Positions 6,711-53,048 of a DNA stretch of 64,000 nt are shown piece after piece. Position 1 is the stretch's first letter. Every line of letters starts with the position of its first letter. The position numbers were made by a program, and so were the translations under genes. Source of the DNA: an uncultured Rivularia sp. (GTDB taxonomy: Bacteria > Cyanobacteriota > Cyanobacteriia > Cyanobacteriales > Nostocaceae). The notes beneath the pieces are model-generated. The model saw only the letters and a program-made list of their open reading frames with translations. It was not told the DNA's origin and searched no databases. Where the stretch lies: assembly GCA_963665115.1 (NCBI GenBank), contig OY762007.1, positions 6,240,001 through 6,304,000 of the forward strand. Reading direction: 5' to 3'.

Positions 6711-7926
6711 CTATCCGATTAATTCAGCTACTCGGATTGCAGATGTAATGGCACCTTCATGTAAACCATCTCCTAAGTAAGCGCCTGCATGATAGGTATG
6801 ATTTTCCCCGTTGGTATCAACTACTTGATCTCGGTATCGGAAAGATTCAACAGTATATAATGGTGTATCATGTTCCAAACTTTGAATAATTTTATCTAGA
6901 TTAATTAAAGATTCGAGATTAAACGCCAAGCTATATTTAACTTCAGATGAGACACCACACAACTGATTAAGATAAGCATTATATCCCCATCCCTTTGCCG
7001 TCTCGAAAAAATCAAACTCCGAAGGTTGTTTAATACCGTATCTATCGTACATCGAAGTATCGGCATGAATCAGCGTAACTATTTGGTTGTTCTCCCAACT
7101 ACCAAAGCGTCTGATTTCAGCTTCTGTAGGATCTAACAATAGCTTTAGTACTCTATCTGGTGGAGTCGCAAACACAACTTTATCAAATCGATAGGTTGCA
7201 CCATCTGATAGTTCAATTTTGACACCATCCGCAATTCTAGAGACATCCGCGACGCTGATGTTTAACAGAATTTCCCCTTTGAAACGCTGTAAAATCTTTT
7301 CAATATAGGAATATACTCCCCCCTTAATTCTGAACCAGTCGATAAAAATATAATCTCGCAGAGATAGAATCCCTAGTTTCCGCAGGAAAATCATCAATTA
7401 GTTCAAATTGCATTGAATAACTATACATCGCCAGCAGTTTTATCCAGGTATTTCTAACACATCGAGTCTTTAAAAAGTAAGATAAAGACCGATTATAGAC
7501 GGACGGAATTTGAGCAAAATGAGTTTTTAACCAAAAACCAGCCGAACGAGCGTATAAACCATCAAGCTTAAAAAATTCGATTAGTCGCTGTATTCGGGTG
7601 AAATTTTTGCGGATTGCCGTTGCAGAATGTATATGATGACCATTTTTGAAAAACATCGTAGAACCTAAATCAACAGGTTCTAAATCAACTTCTAACTCTT
7701 TCATCAAATTGAGAAAGTTGTAGAAATTACCGGGAAATTCCAGTACTCCACCTTCTAAAAATTCGTTACATTCACAGCTTTCAGGTTTAACATTTTTATT
7801 AAGAGTACGAATATGTCCTCCTAGAATAGGCTGCTTTTCAAACACTGTAACATGATGACCTTGTTTATCAAGAAGATAAGCCGTGACTAAACCGCTGGCT
7901 CCCCCGCCAATAATAGCTATTCTCAT
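6711..7926 (-). CDS. FAD-dependent oxidoreductase (amine oxidase-like), split by a +1 frameshift near 7378
   Basis: GGGASG dinucleotide motif, LGGH, C-terminal GLHEGA; the two ORFs join as FPAELGILSLRDY if one base is removed. Confidence 0.8.
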
Positions 7927-8003
7927 CACTCAACTCCTATATTGATTGCTTTTTGATAACTGTTCACTGCATGACGCTACCGCATCACGCTGCGCTAACG
8001 CTG

Positions 8004-12009: not shown

Positions 12010-13266
12010 TCACCCACGCATCACAAACGCTGCAATTAAACTTAAAGCCAAAGCGCTTAACAAAATAGTTGCACACCACCTACCCAGCAACCACCCACCA
12101 ATAAATGTGGCTAGTACTGCTTTGAATAAAGTATTTACCATTGCAGCAATTAGAATTCCTGTCGCAGCAATCTCAAGCGATAAATTTTCACGAGTCGCTT
12201 GCGCTAAAGATAAACTCACCGTGTCTACATCAGCAATTCCAGAAATTGCTGCAAGTATGTAGATACCTGTATCTCCAAAAAATGTTTGAGCAGCACGCAC
12301 AAGCACAAACAAAACACTCAAAACGGCAGCAAAGCCTAAAGCTGCCCCTAATTCAACAGGATTTTTCAACTTTACTTCTGCTGATGATACATTTTGAGTC
12401 GTTCTAATTGCGATTGCTACCGTTGCAATCAGAGGGACAATTGCCAGCAATCCAATTGAAACTATTAGCAAAGGAAGTAAAGAAGGATTAACAATTCCGA
12501 TTTCAATCAGCAACCTTACAGCCATAATACCGCCTGCGAGGGAAATTCCCGCACCCAGTAAAGCTAAATTATCCCGTTCTTTACGCGCTATTCTGGCATA
12601 AGCGAGCGTCACCGCAGTTGATGATACTAATCCACCTATTACCGCAGTTGCTAACAAACCAACGCGGCTGCCAAGGATACGCATTGCAAAGTAGCCAATA
12701 TATGATATACCTGCAATTAAAAGTACTATCCAGCCAATTGTTCTGGGATTCAATGTTTCCCAAGGACCAATATTACGATTTGGAAGTAGAGGAAGCGCTA
12801 CAGTTGCCACTATCAATAGTTGCAGTGTAGCAATTAATTCTCGCCGCTCTAATTGATTAAGAATAGAGTGGATTTCCTGCTTGTATCCTAATAATGCAGC
12901 TACAACTACAGCACTAGCAACCGCTTCTCCTTCAAGTCCACTCCCTGCTAATCCTCCTAAAACAAAGGTAATCAACAATGATAGTTCTGTGGTAATGCCG
13001 AAATCTTGAGAACCTTTGGCGCTGATGCGATAGGAAAAAGCTACTATCAATACCAGCCCCAAAAATGTTCCGACTAAAATATTCGCGCCGAATTTACCTG
13101 CTAAAAGTGCCGACAACCCACCAAAAAGCCCGACGAAAGCAAAGCTTCTCACTCCGGCAGTTCGAGAACCTTGAGGAGTATCTCGACTTTGCCAACCTCG
13201 TTCCATACCGATAATTAAACCGATTGCAAGGGCGATAGCCAATCTAAATGTAGTTGTAATATTCAT
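12010..13266 (-). CDS. MgtC/SapB + DUF4010 membrane protein
   Basis: IGMER..AGVRSF, GITTE, GGLVSSTAVT, SGIADVD. Confidence 0.9.
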   Translation of the reverse strand: MNITTTFRLAIALAIGLIIGMERGWQSRDTPQGSRTAGVRSFAFVGLFGGLSALLAGKFGANILVGTFLGLVLIVAFSYRISAKGSQDFGITTELSLLITFVLGGLAGSGLEGEAVASAVVVAALLGYKQEIHSILNQLERRELIATLQLLIVATVALPLLPNRNIGPWETLNPRTIGWIVLLIAGISYIGYFAMRILGSRVGLLATAVIGGLVSSTAVTLAYARIARKERDNLALLGAGISLAGGIMAVRLLIEIGIVNPSLLPLLIVSIGLLAIVPLIATVAIAIRTTQNVSSAEVKLKNPVELGAALGFAAVLSVLFVLVRAAQTFFGDTGIYILAAISGIADVDTVSLSLAQATRENLSLEIAATGILIAAMVNTLFKAVLATFIGGWLLGRWCATILLSALALSLIAAFVMRG

Positions 13267-13297: not shown

Positions 13298-13408
13298 TTA
13301 AAAAGCTGGAATACTAGTTAAAGCCAATGCTAGCAATACGAATACAATTAGTATGCTAAGTCTGAGCGTCGTGTATTTAATGACATCAGTTACAGAAATG
13401 TCAAACAT
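13298..13408 (-). CDS. Unannotated 36-aa single-TM protein (MFDISVTDVIKYTTLRLSILIVFVLLALALTSIPAF)
   Basis: Strong RBS GGAGGTGAAACC-ATG; homologous to 51884-52003. Confidence 0.75.
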   Translation of the reverse strand: MFDISVTDVIKYTTLRLSILIVFVLLALALTSIPAF

Positions 13409-13558
13409 GGTTTCACCTCCATAGCAGCTTTGTAGTAAGATTTGAGGTTTTTTATAACTAATAGCTGCCTATATCTTTATTGTCTCCTACAAGCAAAGCT
13501 TTACAAAGCCAAAAGTAATATTTCTTAGCCGTTTAGCTGTAGAAGTATTGGATTATTA

Positions 13559-13957
13559 TCATTTCCGCAAAGCTGGTCTGGGAGGCATCCTCATTGCTGG
13601 ACGCATTATTGGCGGTGTTACTTCAAAATTAACTAGCTCGGATTTGAGTAGTTCTTTTTGACGTTCGCTCAATTCTGGAATTTCTAAAACATCTTCAACT
13701 TTTTCGTAGGGACTGTTGAGAACAATCTTTTTTGCAAGATTTGGATAAAAACCTCTGCAATCCTGAAAAGCGATAATATTGGCATTATTTAAATCAATTT
13801 TGGTTTCAAATTCAGGACATGATTTTTCTACATCAACTAATGGTAGTTCTGATGCGAGTGCTTGTATACCTGATGATGGTTGAGGGATAGCAATAATTAT
13901 CAGGCAGATTATGAATATTAAGCTCAATAAAGCTAAGCTACGAATTATGTTTTTCAT
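13559..13957 (-). CDS. psbU: Divergent PsbU-family (PSII 12-kDa extrinsic) protein
   Basis: Signal peptide; KIDLNNAN..GFYPNLAKKI..PYEKVEDVL.IPELSERQK. Confidence 0.8.
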   Translation of the reverse strand: MKNIIRSLALLSLIFIICLIIIAIPQPSSGIQALASELPLVDVEKSCPEFETKIDLNNANIIAFQDCRGFYPNLAKKIVLNSPYEKVEDVLEIPELSERQKELLKSELVNFEVTPPIMRPAMRMPPRPALRK

Positions 13958-14017
13958 CGTTATCTCCCATTTTTAAGCTGACTAATTAGCTCTAAATCTC
14001 AAGTTAAAAAAATAATG

Positions 14018-14032
14018 TGAGTAAATTGTGAG
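14018..14032 (-). promoter_or_regulatory. Regulon box 4 (CTCACAATTTACTCA-N11-TAACTT), toward the psbU-like gene
   Basis: Motif and spacing. Confidence 0.8.
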
Positions 14033-14073
14033 GAAGATTTAAATCCCGAATGTAAAAATTTTTAAGTTATATC

Positions 14074-24391: not shown

Positions 24392-26870
24392 TCAAATAAC
24401 CGTAAATGCCGACGCTACAAAGTCAAATATTAGCTTGTGCCGTACTTGTGGAAAGCCGCTGTAAATTTTAGATTTGGACAGTGGTAAAATAAATTTCTTA
24501 GTAACAATAGTTGGATCTTTCATTGCCATTGGAGCGCTCATCATTGCATCTGTTCGCTTTTTAATATTGCCTTCTAACTGCGAAGGTAAACCATTAGCAT
24601 AGTCTCTGAGGGTTATTTCAATCGCTTTTGTTGAATTCGCAGACAAAGTTAAAGATATTCCCTCTGATGGCAAATTGTGATAAATAAAATTCAAAGAGCG
24701 TTGATTTTGAGTTAATCCACTTAAATCTAATAATTTACCGTTAATGCTCGCGCTTAGTATCTCTTCTGCTACCTTTACTTGAACTTGAATATTATCTGCT
24801 TGTCTGGGAGAATTGATTTTTAACTGCAATTTTCTATTGTTACCTTTAGCGATATCCTCAATAATTTCGATATTCGGCGATGCTAAAGTTACTTTTGGTG
24901 CTGATGCTTTCCAACCCGAAGTTTTCGAGAAGGGAGATATTTCAACTTGACTTTTAGCTGTACCATCTGTAAAAAATTGCGATGTCCATTGATCGAGATT
25001 TTTATCGCCACTTATCCAAAAAGATTTATCGGTATCAGCATCTAAGAGGTAAGCAATGCTATTGGTTTTAGGATATTTGGCATCAAAGCCGGAGTTAACA
25101 GTTGCTACCCCAATTAATAAAAAGCTGACAAAAATTGCAATTCCGGGTATTAGCCAGCGTCGGTAAATTTTTCTTTGAGAAAATCCGTTTCTAAGTAAAA
25201 CGAAATGTGGCAGCATTAAACCAAATAGCAAAGCAGTAAATACCATCGGTAAAGTTGTAAACGGTATATTTGTCAGCGCTTCAAAGCGGTTCATTAAAGA
25301 AGCAAAGTGATAAACTTGATTGGGAATAAGCAAAATAATCCCCGGTATGGCAGTAATAGAAAAGATAATAACTTGCTGCCAAGAATTAGAAATTTGCTTG
25401 CTAGTTAAAAATATCCAGCCCAATCCTAAAAGCGTGAAAAATAATGGTAGCGTAAATAAATAGCTAGCACCGGGCATTAATAAACTAGTTAGCACCATCA
25501 AAGTTGCCCATACAAATATTGCACCGAAGAAAAGATCGTGCAGGTGAAATTTAGTTAACAGCCAAGTATAAAATGCACTCATTACCGCAATAGTTAGGGC
25601 AATAAAAGCAGCATGGTAAATATCGCTATAATAATAACCGATGATAAATATTTGTAAGTTGGGATTTAAAATTTTGACAAGCCACCATACCAAGTTGACT
25701 ATTACAACAGCACTAACAATACTCAACACAAAAGCCACTACCGAAAAACTAATTCCTTTGAGAGTTAATTGCTTGCGTTGAATACCAAGGATGACAACTG
25801 CAATCAAAAGTAATCCTGTAATTATCATTTGTGGAATTACCCAAGCTTGAGAATAGTAAACAACTACTCCCGGCAGAATATTAAAATAAACTGCATCCGT
25901 ATCGGCAGTAATATTGCTTAAATTAATGTTGCCAAAGTGACGAGCTAGCCCTAATGCATAAGAGCCTTGATGCTGAATGCTGCGCGGATCTATTACCTCT
26001 ACGCTGTCGCGATCGGTATGATAAGCAGGTGTATCGGCACCATAGAAAAAACCAAGCCCAGCGCTACCGACATCCATGTATTCTTCTAAATCACAACCAA
26101 GACGCTGTGCGGAAAATAAATTGAGAAATGATGAGAAGAAAGAAGAAGTAAAAGGATACGGTACCGCTTTAACAAACTCCTTTATTAAGGTATTGTTATT
26201 TTCACTGGTGCTGTATAACAAGCTCGCACCACCACTACCCATTGCCTCAAAGTTAATTGCCAAACGGATATCCTTTGCCCAAGGATGTTCCTTAACAAAT
26301 GCCCGCGCTCCTAAATCACCGTTTTCTTCACCATCGGTAAATACGATTAGGACATCATTTTTAAGAGACGATTCATTTTTAAGTATCCGCGCCGTTTCCA
26401 CCAGAGTTACAACACAGGAAACCGCAATCGCTAGCACCCGGAGCAGTTGCACCAGAATCGTAGTGTGCGTTGAGTGCAATTGCTCCGCTGCTATTACTAC
26501 CTTCGAGTCGAGCGATAACGTTATATACGGTACCAGACTCGAAAACCTGAGAACCGGGAAAGCGTTGTACGGCAGTAGTTTTTTGTACAGTTGGCTGCAA
26601 ACCAATTGCAGTTAACTCCCGAACTAAATATTCCCGTGCTGCAACATTACCAGTAGAACCCATCGGACGAGGTTTTTGAGCAATGACTTCCAAATGTTGC
26701 ATTGCTCTTTGAGCCGAAAACTCCCTCAGTGGCGCACTAGCTGGGATAACAGCAGGAGGAATTAACTGCCATAAAGCAACAACAACACTTAGCAAAAGTA
26801 TCAGCAGCAAAAACAAACTTTTACTCAAGCTAATTTGCTCAACTGACCGAGATAAGCTCAATTTCATCAC
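24392..26870 (-). CDS. M28-family membrane aminopeptidase, split by a +1 frameshift at ~26420
   Basis: AHYDS, GASD, DGEE, YHT; frames join as ASDCGSCVVTL. Confidence 0.85.
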
Positions 26871-27004: not shown

Positions 27005-27631
27005 TTACCCACTACACCAAGTATCGAGCATCCGAGTTTCCATAGCTTCTGGGAATTCTTCACAGTATTCTTCAAAGGCAGTTTTAGAAACTCTCTTGGC
27101 TTCTTGATGTGCTAACTCAGCTTGCAACTCGTCAACAATATCCCAAGCAACAGCGCACTCTTCGGAACGAGGAGAGGTTTCGCTGCAAGCAATGCGGGCT
27201 TTTTTAATTGCATCTTGAAGCTCTTGTTCTAATACAGTAACCCGAGGTAATTCAATAAACTTGCTTTCATTAATGATATCGACAAGCGAAATGATACCCA
27301 TTAATTCTCCTTGAATTACGGGTGCCCTGAGCAAACGATGTTGGGCAAATAATCGCGCTACAAATTCCACACCTAAGTCGGGATTTACTACTATACAAGG
27401 CTTACTCATGATTTCGTACACGCGCACTTTGGCTGGATCTTTACCAAAAGCGATTACTTTATAAACTATGTCTGCTTCGGTAATAATTCCGTAGGCATCT
27501 TGGTCGTGACGACGCTCTACAATTAATGCGTGCCATCCCCTCGCTTGCATTAACTTAACTGCTTCTGCCACAGTTGCGGAACTGCGAACGGTAGCAACAT
27601 CTGTAGTCATAATGTCTGCTGCTCTCAACAT
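27005..27631 (-). CDS. CBS-CP12 fusion protein
   Basis: CBS pair plus C..CAVAWDIVDELQAE and FEEYCEEFPEA. Confidence 0.92.
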   Translation of the reverse strand: MLRAADIMTTDVATVRSSATVAEAVKLMQARGWHALIVERRHDQDAYGIITEADIVYKVIAFGKDPAKVRVYEIMSKPCIVVNPDLGVEFVARLFAQHRLLRAPVIQGELMGIISLVDIINESKFIELPRVTVLEQELQDAIKKARIACSETSPRSEECAVAWDIVDELQAELAHQEAKRVSKTAFEEYCEEFPEAMETRMLDTWCSG

Positions 27632-32698: not shown

Positions 32699-32880
32699 CA
32701 AGCGTCCGATTGAGGACGAGTTATAAACAACTTTTTTAATTAACCGTCCTCTTTTTGAATGCAGGAAGCCGCACATTTTGCTTTTCCAGAAACCCTGGGT
32801 ATCGTCGCAATGAGAAAATGTGCATCTGTATAAATTTGACTTATTACTCGGCAATTAAACACTTAGATACCAGAGTCAAA

Positions 32881-35110
32881 ATGATGGAACAATGGAATGG
32901 GTTTCAAACTGGCAAGTGGATGAAGGAAATCAATGTACGTGACTTTATCCAAAAAAACTATAATCCTTACACGGGAGACGATTCTTTTTTAACAGGTGCA
33001 ACCAAAAAAACTCAAACTTTGTGGAATCAGGTAAAAACTCTGATGGAAACAGAGCGGGAAAAAGAAATTTTAGATGTTGATACAGAAGTTGTTTCGACAA
33101 TTACTTCCCATCAACCGGGCTATATTAACCGTGAATTAGAGCAAATTGTCGGTTTACAAACCGATAAACCTCTCAAACGCGCTATTATGGCTTTTGGCGG
33201 TATTCGAGTCGTGAAATCTTCTTTATCAGCTTATGGGTACAAACTAAATCTACAGACAGAAGAGATTTTCACTAAATATCGCAAAAGCCATAACGACGGG
33301 GTTTTTGATGCTTATACCAGCGAAATGCGGTTAGCACGACACTCCGGTATTATCACGGGTTTGCCCGATGCTTATGGTAGAGGTAGAATCATTGGCGATT
33401 ATCGTCGAGTCGCTTTGTACGGTGTTGATAGGCTAATTGACGATAAAAAAGAGCAGCTCGAATCTTTAGAAGTAGATGCAATAGAATCCACTGTAATTCA
33501 ACTCCGGGAAGAAATAAACGAGCAAATAAAAGCTTTGTTCGAGCTTAAGGAAATGGCTGTTAGCTACGGTTTTAATCTTAGTCTTCCTGCTAGCAATGCT
33601 CAAGAAGCAGTACAGTGGCTTTACTTTGGTTATTTAGCAGCAGTCAAAGAACAAAATGGTGCTGCAATGTCTTTAGGAAGAATTTCAACTTTCTTGGATA
33701 TCTATTTTGAACGAGATTTGCAGCAAGGTAAGGTAACAGAAACACAGTTGCAAGAATTCATCGACCATTTTGTAATGAAATTGCGGATGGTGCGTTTCTT
33801 GCGAAACCCCAGAATACAACCAATTATTCTCCGGAGATCCCACTTGGGTAACAGAATGTATCGGTGGTATGGGTGAAGACGGTAGAACTCTTGTGACCAA
33901 AAATAGCTTCCGTATCCTCAATACTCTGTATAATTTGGGAGCAGCACCAGAGCCGAATTTAACTGTACTATGGTCGGAAAGATTGCCAAAAGCTTTCAAG
34001 GAATTTTGTACAAATGTTTCTATCCATACCAGTTCAATTCAGTATGAAAACGATGACTTGATGCGTCCGTATTGGGGTGATGATTACGGAATTGCTTGCT
34101 GTGTATCTGCAATGCGAATTGGTAAGCAAATGCAATTCTTTGGCGCACGGGTTAACCTTGCCAAATGTTTGCTATATGCTATCAATGGCGGTAAAGATGA
34201 AAAATCCGGCGAGCAAATCGCACCAGCTTTTGCACCAATTACCTCAGAATATCTAGACTACGACGAGGTAATCCAAAGATTTGACTTGATGGTGGATTGG
34301 TTAGCAAAAACCTACATCAATATGCTTAACGTCATCCACTATATGCATGATAAATACTGCTACGAACGCATTGAAATGGCGTTACACGACCGCGATGTGT
34401 TCCGGACAATGGCTTGCGGTATGGCTGGTTTATCAGTAGTTGCGGATGCGTTAGCGGCTATTAAATACGCCAAAGTCAAAGTATTGCGCGACGAAACAGG
34501 ACTTGCTGTTGATTATAAAATAGAAGGCGATTTTCCTAAATATGGTAACAACGATGACCGCGCCGATGATATTGCTGCGGGCTTAATTACCGATTTTATG
34601 AACAAACTGCGCCAGCATAAAACCTATCGCAATGCTTTACCAACTCAGTCAATATTAACCATTACCTCAAACGTCGTTTACGGTAAGAAAACAGGTAGTA
34701 CCCCAGACGGGAGAAAAGCTGGAGAACCCTTTGCACCGGGAGCGAACCCCATGCACGGAAGAGATACGAAAGGGGCGATCGCCTCTCTTGCGTCGGTAGC
34801 CAAACTTCCTTACGAATACTCCCAAGACGGTATTTCCAATACTTTCTCTATTGTGCCTAGCGCACTGGGTAAAATTCCAGAAGACAGAATTAACAACTTA
34901 GTGGGAATGCTCGACGGATATTTCCACGATGGAGGACATCATATCAACGTCAATGTTCTAAATCGAGAAATGTTATTAGATGCAATGGAACATCCCGAAG
35001 AATATCCGCAGTTAACTATCAGGGTTTCTGGTTATGCAGTCAATTTCATTAAATTAACCCGAGAACAGCAGCTTGACGTTGTGAAACGGACATTCCACGA
35101 ACGGATGTAA
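32881..35110 (+). CDS. pflB: Pyruvate formate-lyase, with a +1 frameshift at ~33805
   Basis: [30 protein letters not shown] glycyl loop; frames join as FLRTPEYN. Confidence 0.93.
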
Positions 35111-51766: not shown

Positions 51767-51805
51767 AAAAGTATCGTGTCATTATGCTTATCAGAATAAA
51801 ACTTC

Positions 51806-51820
51806 CTCACAAGATTCTCA
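51806..51820 (+). promoter_or_regulatory. Regulon box 21 (CTCACAAGATTCTCA-N11-TAGATT)
   Basis: Motif and spacing. Confidence 0.82.
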
Positions 51821-51883
51821 AACTTATTTTTTAGATTAATAATATACATTCCATATAAAGCATTTACATTGGAGGTAGCAAAG

Positions 51884-52003
51884 ATGGAATACTTTACACT
51901 AATACCATTTACAACAGATATTACATATCTAATTGTCAAACTCGCAGTACTGCTTGCGGTTCTATTAGTTTGGATGATAGTTATGACACATCCCGCTTAT
52001 TAA
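51884..52003 (+). CDS. Unannotated 39-aa single-TM protein (MEYFTLIPFTTDITYLIVKLAVLLAVLLVWMIVMTHPAY)
   Basis: GGAGGT RBS, directly behind box 21; homologous to 13298-13408. Confidence 0.78.
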   Translation: MEYFTLIPFTTDITYLIVKLAVLLAVLLVWMIVMTHPAY

Positions 52004-52192
52004 ATCTTCATGAATGTTGCAGCATTAATTTTGACGTGAGAAGCATCTCTAAATCATCTTTGAGAAACACAAATCAAACCAGATTGCTAGAAATAAAACG
52101 AAAAATTTGCTTGATTTATAAAGGGATAGGGAGAACTAATTCAATAATCCCTATTTTTATTTTCACTACATGTAGCTGTACCCTAAATTCTC

Positions 52193-52273: not shown

Positions 52274-53048
52274 ATGGTTGTAACAAAAGATAAAAAACCG
52301 GAAAATTCTTTATTCGTACAGCCAGCAAATACCCCCAAACAAAGGGGTAGTAAAAAAGTTATTTGTTGTCACCGTTCGTCATCTCTACCACGCTTTTGGT
52401 AAAGGAGATTTATGCAAGCCTGTTTTAAGTGATGTCAATTTATACATTTACAAAGGTGAAATTGTTATTATGCGCGGACCATCGGGAAGCGGTAAAACCA
52501 CTTTATTAACGTTAATTGGTGCTTTGCGTTCAATACAGCAAGGAAGCATATGCGTATTTGGTCGAGAATTATACGGTGCGAGCAAGTTGCAGTTAGTCAA
52601 AATTCGCCAGCAAATCGGATTTATTTTTCAGTCTCATAATTTACTCGAATCACTCACAGCACAGCAAAATGTAGGAATGTCCTTACGCTTGCATGAAAAT
52701 TTGTCGATTGAGGAGCGTACCGCAAGGTCACAGGCAATATTAGCATCTGTTGGTTTAGGGGAACGCATCGATTATTACCCCGAAAAGCTTTCTGGTGGAC
52801 AAAAACAAAGAATTGCTATTGCTCGTGCATTGGTAGGTGAACCTTTACTCGTACTAGCAGATGAACCTACAGCAGCTTTAGACAGTAAATCTGGTCGAGA
52901 TGTGGTGAATATCATGCAAAAACTAGCCAAGCTACAAGGAAGCACTATTTTGCTAGTGACTCACGATAGCCGCATTTTAGATGTTGCAGATAGAATTTTA
53001 CGGATGGAAGATGGACGGGTAACTCAAGATACATTACTAAAAACTTGA
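52274..53048 (+). CDS. DevA-like ABC ATP-binding protein; N-terminus offset by a +1 frameshift near 52350-52365
   Basis: GPSGSGKTT, LSGGQKQR, ADEPT; upstream frame reads TVRHLYHAFGKG. Confidence 0.85.

Follow-up and report, generated by a model that had tools for sequence, protein, structure and literature searches.

Introduction

Microproteins such as AtpTheta and SliP4 control energy metabolism in cyanobacteria. Small membrane proteins commonly act on a larger membrane partner, and the accessible parts of PMC6813294 and PMC12648545 describe MgtR (30 aa, Salmonella mgtCBR operon), MgtS and AcrZ as single hydrophobic helices that do so. SliP4/HliR1 (37 aa, Synechocystis) is presented as a stress-regulated cyanobacterial microprotein in the accessible text of PMC5126843, PMC11848123 and PMC12850537, and a preprint, also accessible in part, describes Ncl1450/Ncr1470, a 36-aa helix with a 40-aa antisense ORF, with Ncl1450 homologs reported from Pleurocapsa PCC 7327 and Cyanothece PCC 7822 (bioRxiv 10.64898/2025.12.20.695498).

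Here we follow up two short ORFs in a stretch of 64,000 nucleotides (the window) from an uncultured Rivularia sp. (GCA_963665115.1, contig OY762007.1, positions 6,240,001 to 6,304,000; genome G000). A sequence-only reading had proposed that ORF1, a 39-aa membrane microprotein with its own regulon box, and ORF2, a 36-aa ORF elsewhere in the window, belong to a small-protein family within one regulon. A one-helix membrane microprotein is an already known kind of system and not a new one. The family is like SliP4/HliR1 in size and in its one helix, it shares a length of about 36 aa and a single helix with Ncl1450, and the ORF2 gene, unlike that of ORF1, recalls MgtR by lying beside a gene for an MgtC-domain protein.

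Results

ORF1 is a conserved gene with its own box

The four elements named in the sequence-only reading can be read directly in the sequence, in the claimed order, and are given here together with the box of the following gene.

51804..51825, plus strand: direct-repeat box CTCACA-N5-CTCAAA with an 11-bp period, filling the -35 position (repeats CTCACA 51806-11 and CTCAAA 51817-22)
51832..51837, plus strand: predicted -10, TAGATT, 9 nt past the second repeat
51871..51876, plus strand: Shine-Dalgarno GGAGGT, 7 nt ahead of the ATG; purine-rich site retained in aligned relatives
51884..52003, plus strand: ORF1, 39 aa, predicted single-helix membrane protein (ATG at 51884, TAA ending at 52003; family residues Y15, K19, L23, W30, P37)
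52191: own box of the next gene after ORF1

With a matrix trained on 17 sites of the window, the ORF1 site being left out, the ORF1 box scored 26.2 bits, and its -10 lies at the fixed spacing of the island, so that the claim of an own regulon box held; expression of ORF1 is very probably driven by this box. Orthologs with 69-100% identity were found in 7 of the 27 genomes of the genus. TAGATT is identical in 8/8 aligned ORF1 loci, and in the DNA alignment of the relatives the box, the -10, the RBS and the frame are retained, start and stop are fixed, the sole indel is in frame and DNA identity declines just past the stop codon. The dN/dS values of 0.12-0.44 in eight pairs, together with dN=0 in a ninth (last 25 codons), point to purifying selection, and the checks that had been suggested for the frame and its coding status thus came out in favour of ORF1. 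As a coding ORF of at most 50 aa under selection, it would belong with the bacterial small single-span membrane proteins and is almost certainly a real protein. Its description as unannotated was half true: by the account of the earlier reading ORF1 is missing from its ORF track, but an identical 39-aa sequence is present on 6 contigs of a public collection, where the name field is empty or withheld.

AlphaFold returned a single helix for residues 7-34 of ORF1 (mean pLDDT 80), which together with the hydropathy of ORF1 and of the family by column predicts one hydrophobic helix of membrane-spanning length. We infer that members of the family are translated and inserted into the membrane.

The surrounding fermentation island

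The island genes of the window encode PFK, pyruvate kinase, PFL with its activase, AdhE, acetate-CoA ligase and USP, and the window also encodes a P-type ATPase, a GH65 phosphorylase, a PsbU paralog, an MgtC-DUF4010 protein and CBS-CP12, the last being a fusion within the island (window 27005-27631). West of the window, translations inspected by eye indicate HSP20, USPs and PEP synthase, and a second ATP synthase operon of N-ATPase-like order, likewise judged by eye from translations, lies in the island (L087, G000 6224259-6234846). A 1317-aa REC-wHTH-Hpt-REC-PAS-GAF-kinase (L086:8893-12843, G000 6210893-6214843) is a candidate regulator of the box, and a similar but split regulator is located downstream of a box at G000 7443347. 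Low oxygen is rather likely to be the signal of the island, a label taken from gene content only.

Several genes of the window appear truncated or split. At 52274-53048, a box-driven HlyD-type gene is cut short at about 30 codons, and a partial ABC ATPase comes immediately after it; the protein of relatives measures 412 aa, and the arrangement looks like a deletion in this genome. The pyruvate formate-lyase at 32755-35110 occupies two overlapping frames with a break near 33860 (mutation or sequencing error), and an M28 peptidase (24392-26870) and a flavin amine-oxidase-family gene (6711-7929) each appear split into two ORFs.

A de novo motif search of upstream regions gave cCTCACAAgTTcCTCAaA. 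Of the 33 box sites of at least 20 bits that the 8.69-Mb genome contains, 29 lie in the island at 6.21-6.29 Mb. A TA lies 9 nt past the second repeat in 32/33 sites (TAnnnT in 20/33), and from this fixed spacing we conclude that the box takes the place of the -35, as the binding box of OmpR/PhoB-type activators does. The predicted island box resembles those of the RcaC/L-box and other OmpR/PhoB-type direct-repeat regulons in its pair of repeats with an 11-bp period and in its constant spacing to the -10, with a REC-wHTH-Hpt regulator in the island, but its repeat sequence and its fermentation targets are different.

ORF2 and its relation to ORF1

ORF2 is encoded on the minus strand between a PsbU paralog and the MgtC/DUF4010 gene.

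12010..13266, minus strand: MgtC/DUF4010 membrane protein (Pfam), 31 nt downstream of ORF2; candidate partner of the ORF2 branch
13298..13408, minus strand: ORF2, 36 aa, a distant paralog with K replaced by R and W by A; dN below dS in 8/8 pairs
13415..13420, minus strand: Shine-Dalgarno GGAGGT of ORF2, 6 nt ahead of the ATG
13470..13489, minus strand: extended -10-like promoter motif with GACAAT core, common to the core family, 61 nt upstream of ORF2
13559..13957, minus strand: PsbU paralog (Pfam PF06514, E 8e-27), upstream of ORF2
14013..14034, minus strand: box ahead of the PsbU paralog (28.8 bits, training site)

A matrix scan revealed no box of its own for ORF2 (best -0.7 bits). Its promoter motif scored 16.2 bits, which places it in the genome-wide top 19 (matrix from 26 core loci only), and the same scan did not detect this motif at ORF1. 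The box at 14013..14034 could drive ORF2 and mgtC via read-through as well. The PsbU paralog with its box, a part of the fermentation island, also precedes ORF2 in several relatives of the genus.

In MgtC/DUF4010 of family f1, an ORF2-clade gene is located directly upstream in 10/10 copies, compared with 0/14 other copies, at a distance of 31-65 nt ahead of mgtC. The linkage of ORF2 and mgtC is one inherited arrangement, found in two genera. At L146 and L151, the DUF4010 genes follow a gene resembling an allophycocyanin alpha-type subunit (translation, by eye).

The ungapped alignment of the last 27 aa on which the kinship of ORF1 and ORF2 had been based was reproduced with 7 identities and a BLOSUM62 score of 40, the best among the 23,391 small ORFs of the genome (runner-up 31); a local-alignment shuffle gave p=0.0068. 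Among 744 hydrophobic-tailed small ORFs, ORF1 and ORF2 are the only ones to end in P[AS][YFW]. By itself the pairwise match is weak (phmmer E about 5), and ORF2 matches the core-family profiles weakly as well (E 0.02-0.3). ORF2 as a query retrieves the same G035 locus as ORF1, intermediate sequences bridge members of the two types, and the profile-profile match between ORF1-type and ORF2-type sequences reached 97.4% at E 1e-11. On the profile match and the bridging sequences, the two ORFs are distant paralogs of one small-protein family, as had been proposed.

A tree of 100 rows places ORF1 and ORF2 on different branches. AU tests on 52 of these rows and ~37 columns, of groups defined after the first tree had been viewed, rejected a single clade for both window branches (p-AU 0.029) and all own-box members as one group (p-AU 0.004). 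From the aligned sequences, ORF1 and ORF2 would not be each other's closest relatives.

Distribution of the family

The profile search that had been suggested for cyanobacteria recovered a conserved family, with matches in at least 55 of 301 genomes of the order and in at least 49 at E<=2e-5, 7 of these 49 having contributed to the profile. Across the phylum, at least 35 of 251 genomes carry it, with 0/107 in the largest sampled family (f48) among the matches listed. An exhaustive search yielded 65 clusters at 50% identity, comprising 64 short proteins and one repetitive artefact. The members are stand-alone proteins of mostly 36-42 aa and are called hypothetical wherever they are named (Microcystis, Picosynechococcus, Crocosphaera, Gloeothece, Pleurocapsa, Nostoc, Anabaena/Dolichospermum, Fischerella). 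In core-member pairs, dN is below dS in 6/6.

At E<=0.5, any given Pfam/NCBIfam family matched at most 2 of 28 members. Searches of the PDB by sequence and with Foldseek returned 0 matches, a lone helix being little informative there, and the ESM Atlas holds three nameless 37-39-aa clusters at 0.86-0.89, which are leads only. No family match was found on plasmids, the phage search returned one chance match (E=5), and tandem arrays of family genes were not seen. A literature search that included six member locus tags found no published description; supplements and subscription journals, which lay outside it, might mention the family. We regard the family as real and apparently undescribed.

Contigs from 4 of 22 Microcystis RNA runs, the ones compared here, span the homolog together with everything around it and may therefore derive from DNA; both variants listed within the ORF fall on third codon positions, and insertions start at or just after the stop. 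A Nostoc record (L120:1353-1445) holds a truncated ORF1-type remnant without a start inside a box island.

History of the promoters

In a census of 85 distinct loci, with a preference for ATG plus RBS in the choice of starts, an own box was found at 9/12 ORF1-clade, 1/16 ORF2-clade and 0/57 core loci. A box within 1.5 kb was present at 11/12, 13/16 and 1/57 loci, respectively, as against some 1% of 3.1-kb windows drawn at random from G000. Linkage to the island thus holds for both branches. The family as a whole, however, is not confined to the regulon, contrary to what had been claimed, and members also occur in genomes without an exact box match, e.g. G161, G093, G241 and G042. Exact boxes number 16-21 in the 7 genomes of the genus with ORF1, compared with 0-14 in the 10 others scanned.

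The extended -10-like motif is present at 42/57 core loci, 26 of which served as training, and at 12/16 ORF2-clade loci with at least 10 bits, compared with a background of 1.1% in each case. A specific regulon behind this core motif was considered and rejected: with 9 genome matches ahead of mixed genes, we read it as an extended -10 shared by descent. Own-box members sit on two branches, and their grouping was rejected. We conclude that the family predates its link to the regulon and that the box was probably acquired on at least two occasions. L079 (G347:C25:78628-78738), a member of the ORF2 branch without a visible island, has acquired a box of its own that lies 83 nt upstream and scores 22.3 bits, with loss of the ancestral promoter motif.

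Conserved helix face and neighbouring genes

Of the 53 pattern-anchored rows, 53 keep Y, 53 K/Q, 49 L, 45 W and 46 P; Y, K and W are partly fixed by the anchor itself, and 2/55 rows without the anchor had been dropped. Counted from Y (0), the conserved columns are K at +4, V/L at +7/+8, V/A at +11, W at +15 and P at +22, and the distance from K to the end is 21 residues in 48/53 rows. The conserved Y, K, L, W and P fall on one helix face. Conservation follows a period of 100 degrees (shuffle p=0.023), a modest result that any stable membrane helix can give. One conserved face with a buried lysine fits a helix packed on a specific partner and favours a modulator of the MgtR/AcrZ kind.

Core members mostly have unrelated housekeeping genes beside them. 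In 26/57 core loci the following gene is convergent, and the downstream genes vary, which argues for action in trans rather than in cis. Neither of two candidates was retained as a universal partner. Host_attach is present in 13/43 family-positive and 2/37 negative genomes, and DUF4010 in 19/62 and 0/18, related genomes not being independent in either comparison; five genomes were reassigned to family-positive after the DUF4010 comparison. MgtC-DUF4010 was not found in 43/62 family-positive genomes. In 5 of the 13 genomes that have both, a Host_attach stress gene is no more than 3 kb away from the family gene.

Discussion

Comparison with described systems

MgtR binds MgtC and promotes its degradation by FtsH. 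The family differs from MgtR in that the ORF2 gene lies upstream of mgtC and in that the carriers without a DUF4010 match form the larger part. No MgtR-type family was found for 28 members in Pfam/NCBIfam at E<=0.5, libraries that may hold no MgtR model. The Ala-coil of MgtR (small residues at i, i+7 and i+14) is, by eye, absent from ORF1 and ORF2; column +6 of the family is small, but +13 is Leu in 36/53 rows.

SliP4/HliR1 was rejected as an identity, given that the start in the primer table within the accessible part of PMC5126843 encodes a different N-terminus. According to the accessible parts of these sources, SliP4 is located upstream of sodB, controlled by RpaB, induced by high light and limited to Synechocystis and few others; the present family is broader. 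Norf4 was set aside as well, its start sequence, context and range being different in what is accessible of PMC5126843, PMC11848123 and PMC12850537. Pleurocapsa PCC 7327 and Cyanothece PCC 7822 also carry the present family, and this overlap of hosts made Ncl1450 seem a promising candidate. The G211 ORF that fits the partly accessible description (L173:10408-10515), however, scored 3.1 bits and is without Y-x3-K. The present family was not found in G211, the genome with the Ncl1450 locus, among the matches listed, which may be why the Ribo-seq work missed it. TisB and Ibs are short hydrophobic helices with a lysine, as is the family; they were rejected as identities, their models (PF13939 and PF13956) missing the family loci.

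Proposed function and alternatives

We hypothesize that the island would be turned on in the dark or at low oxygen by the REC-wHTH-Hpt-PAS-GAF-kinase and that the ORF1 and ORF2 copies would likely be co-expressed. The predicted single helix would insert into the membrane, probably N-in/C-out because the only basic residue lies at its N-terminal side. Its conserved face would likely bind a larger membrane protein and tune the activity or stability of this partner, acting in trans in the manner of MgtR and AcrZ. The ancestral target may be a core membrane complex for energy transduction or ion transport that every carrier possesses, a guess made because no neighbour gene is common to most members, and the ORF2 branch, with K changed to R and W lost, may have moved to the adjacent MgtC-DUF4010 protein. 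That the proteins modulate a membrane partner we consider reasonably likely; that ORF1 and ORF2 are single-helix, partner-binding modulators of a larger membrane protein, expressed here with the island, is the reading we favour with modest confidence. Any single named target is doubtful. The boldest version, in which one-helix regulators were repeatedly rewired from a general promoter into a low-oxygen regulon and throttle the ATP synthase or the respiratory chain when cells ferment in the dark, and in which the ORF2 branch works like a convergent MgtR on MgtC-DUF4010 beside the second ATP synthase operon, is speculative and, taken as a whole, unlikely.

Action of the peptide alone or as a homo-oligomer, either as a mild depolariser resembling type I toxins or as a membrane stabiliser aiding entry into dormancy, is unlikely. 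Size, the single helix, the lysine within the hydrophobic stretch and the stress and dormancy neighbours USP, HSP20 and Host_attach would suit such a role, and the accessible text of the preprint proposes the 36-aa cyanobacterial helix Ncl1450 as type I toxin-like (bioRxiv 10.64898/2025.12.20.695498). Yet Ncl1450 barely registers on the family profile, at only 3.1 bits, and at E<=10 the TisB and Ibs models gave no match at the family loci of 5/5 genomes. The lack of tandem arrays and plasmid matches argues against a toxin as well. Furthermore, the predicted leader measures only about 40 nt, the transcript region folds no better than shuffles (z -0.32) and the DNA alignment holds no conserved 3' element; neither a structured leader nor a conserved antisense element was found at family loci, and a poorly conserved antisense RNA is possible. 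A different role for the peptide, that of a signal-peptide mimic or C-terminal ligand whose Pro-hydrophobic-hydrophobic tail would bind a PDZ protease (CtpA/Deg type) or signal peptidase in the lumen or periplasm, is improbable. Family tails such as PVV, PAI and PAY would be like cyanobacterial signal-peptide ends, and the length from K to the end is fixed; the gene after L029 encodes a PDZ S41 protease, genes similar to it come after L031 and L032, and rhomboid genes lie near L039 and L079. Such protease neighbours, however, occur in only one or two lineages, the tail is lengthened or altered in several members, and the strongest conservation (Y, K, L, W) is found within the helix instead of the tail.

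The proline near the stop and the position of ORF2 31-65 nt ahead of mgtC are also what a cis-acting leader or arrest peptide controlling the downstream gene would show, and leader ORFs precede Salmonella mgtC in the accessible part of PMC3641672. With a downstream gene that is convergent in 26/57 core loci and varied otherwise, and with an own box at 52191 for the gene after ORF1, this explanation is very improbable. Since both ORFs look like a signal peptide that stops just ahead of the cleavage site, they might be non-functional remnants of lost secreted proteins. This view is largely refuted and carries the smallest chance of all: among the 65 matches no longer protein has the segment, save the repetitive artefact, the stop keeps its position from family to family, and dN is far lower than dS.

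Implications

ORF1 and ORF2 are two island-linked paralogs, with probable repeated promoter capture in the family, whose function we infer. The family provides a clean case of promoter replacement and offers a small, taggable handle on the retuning of the membrane for dark anoxia in oxygen-producing bacteria.
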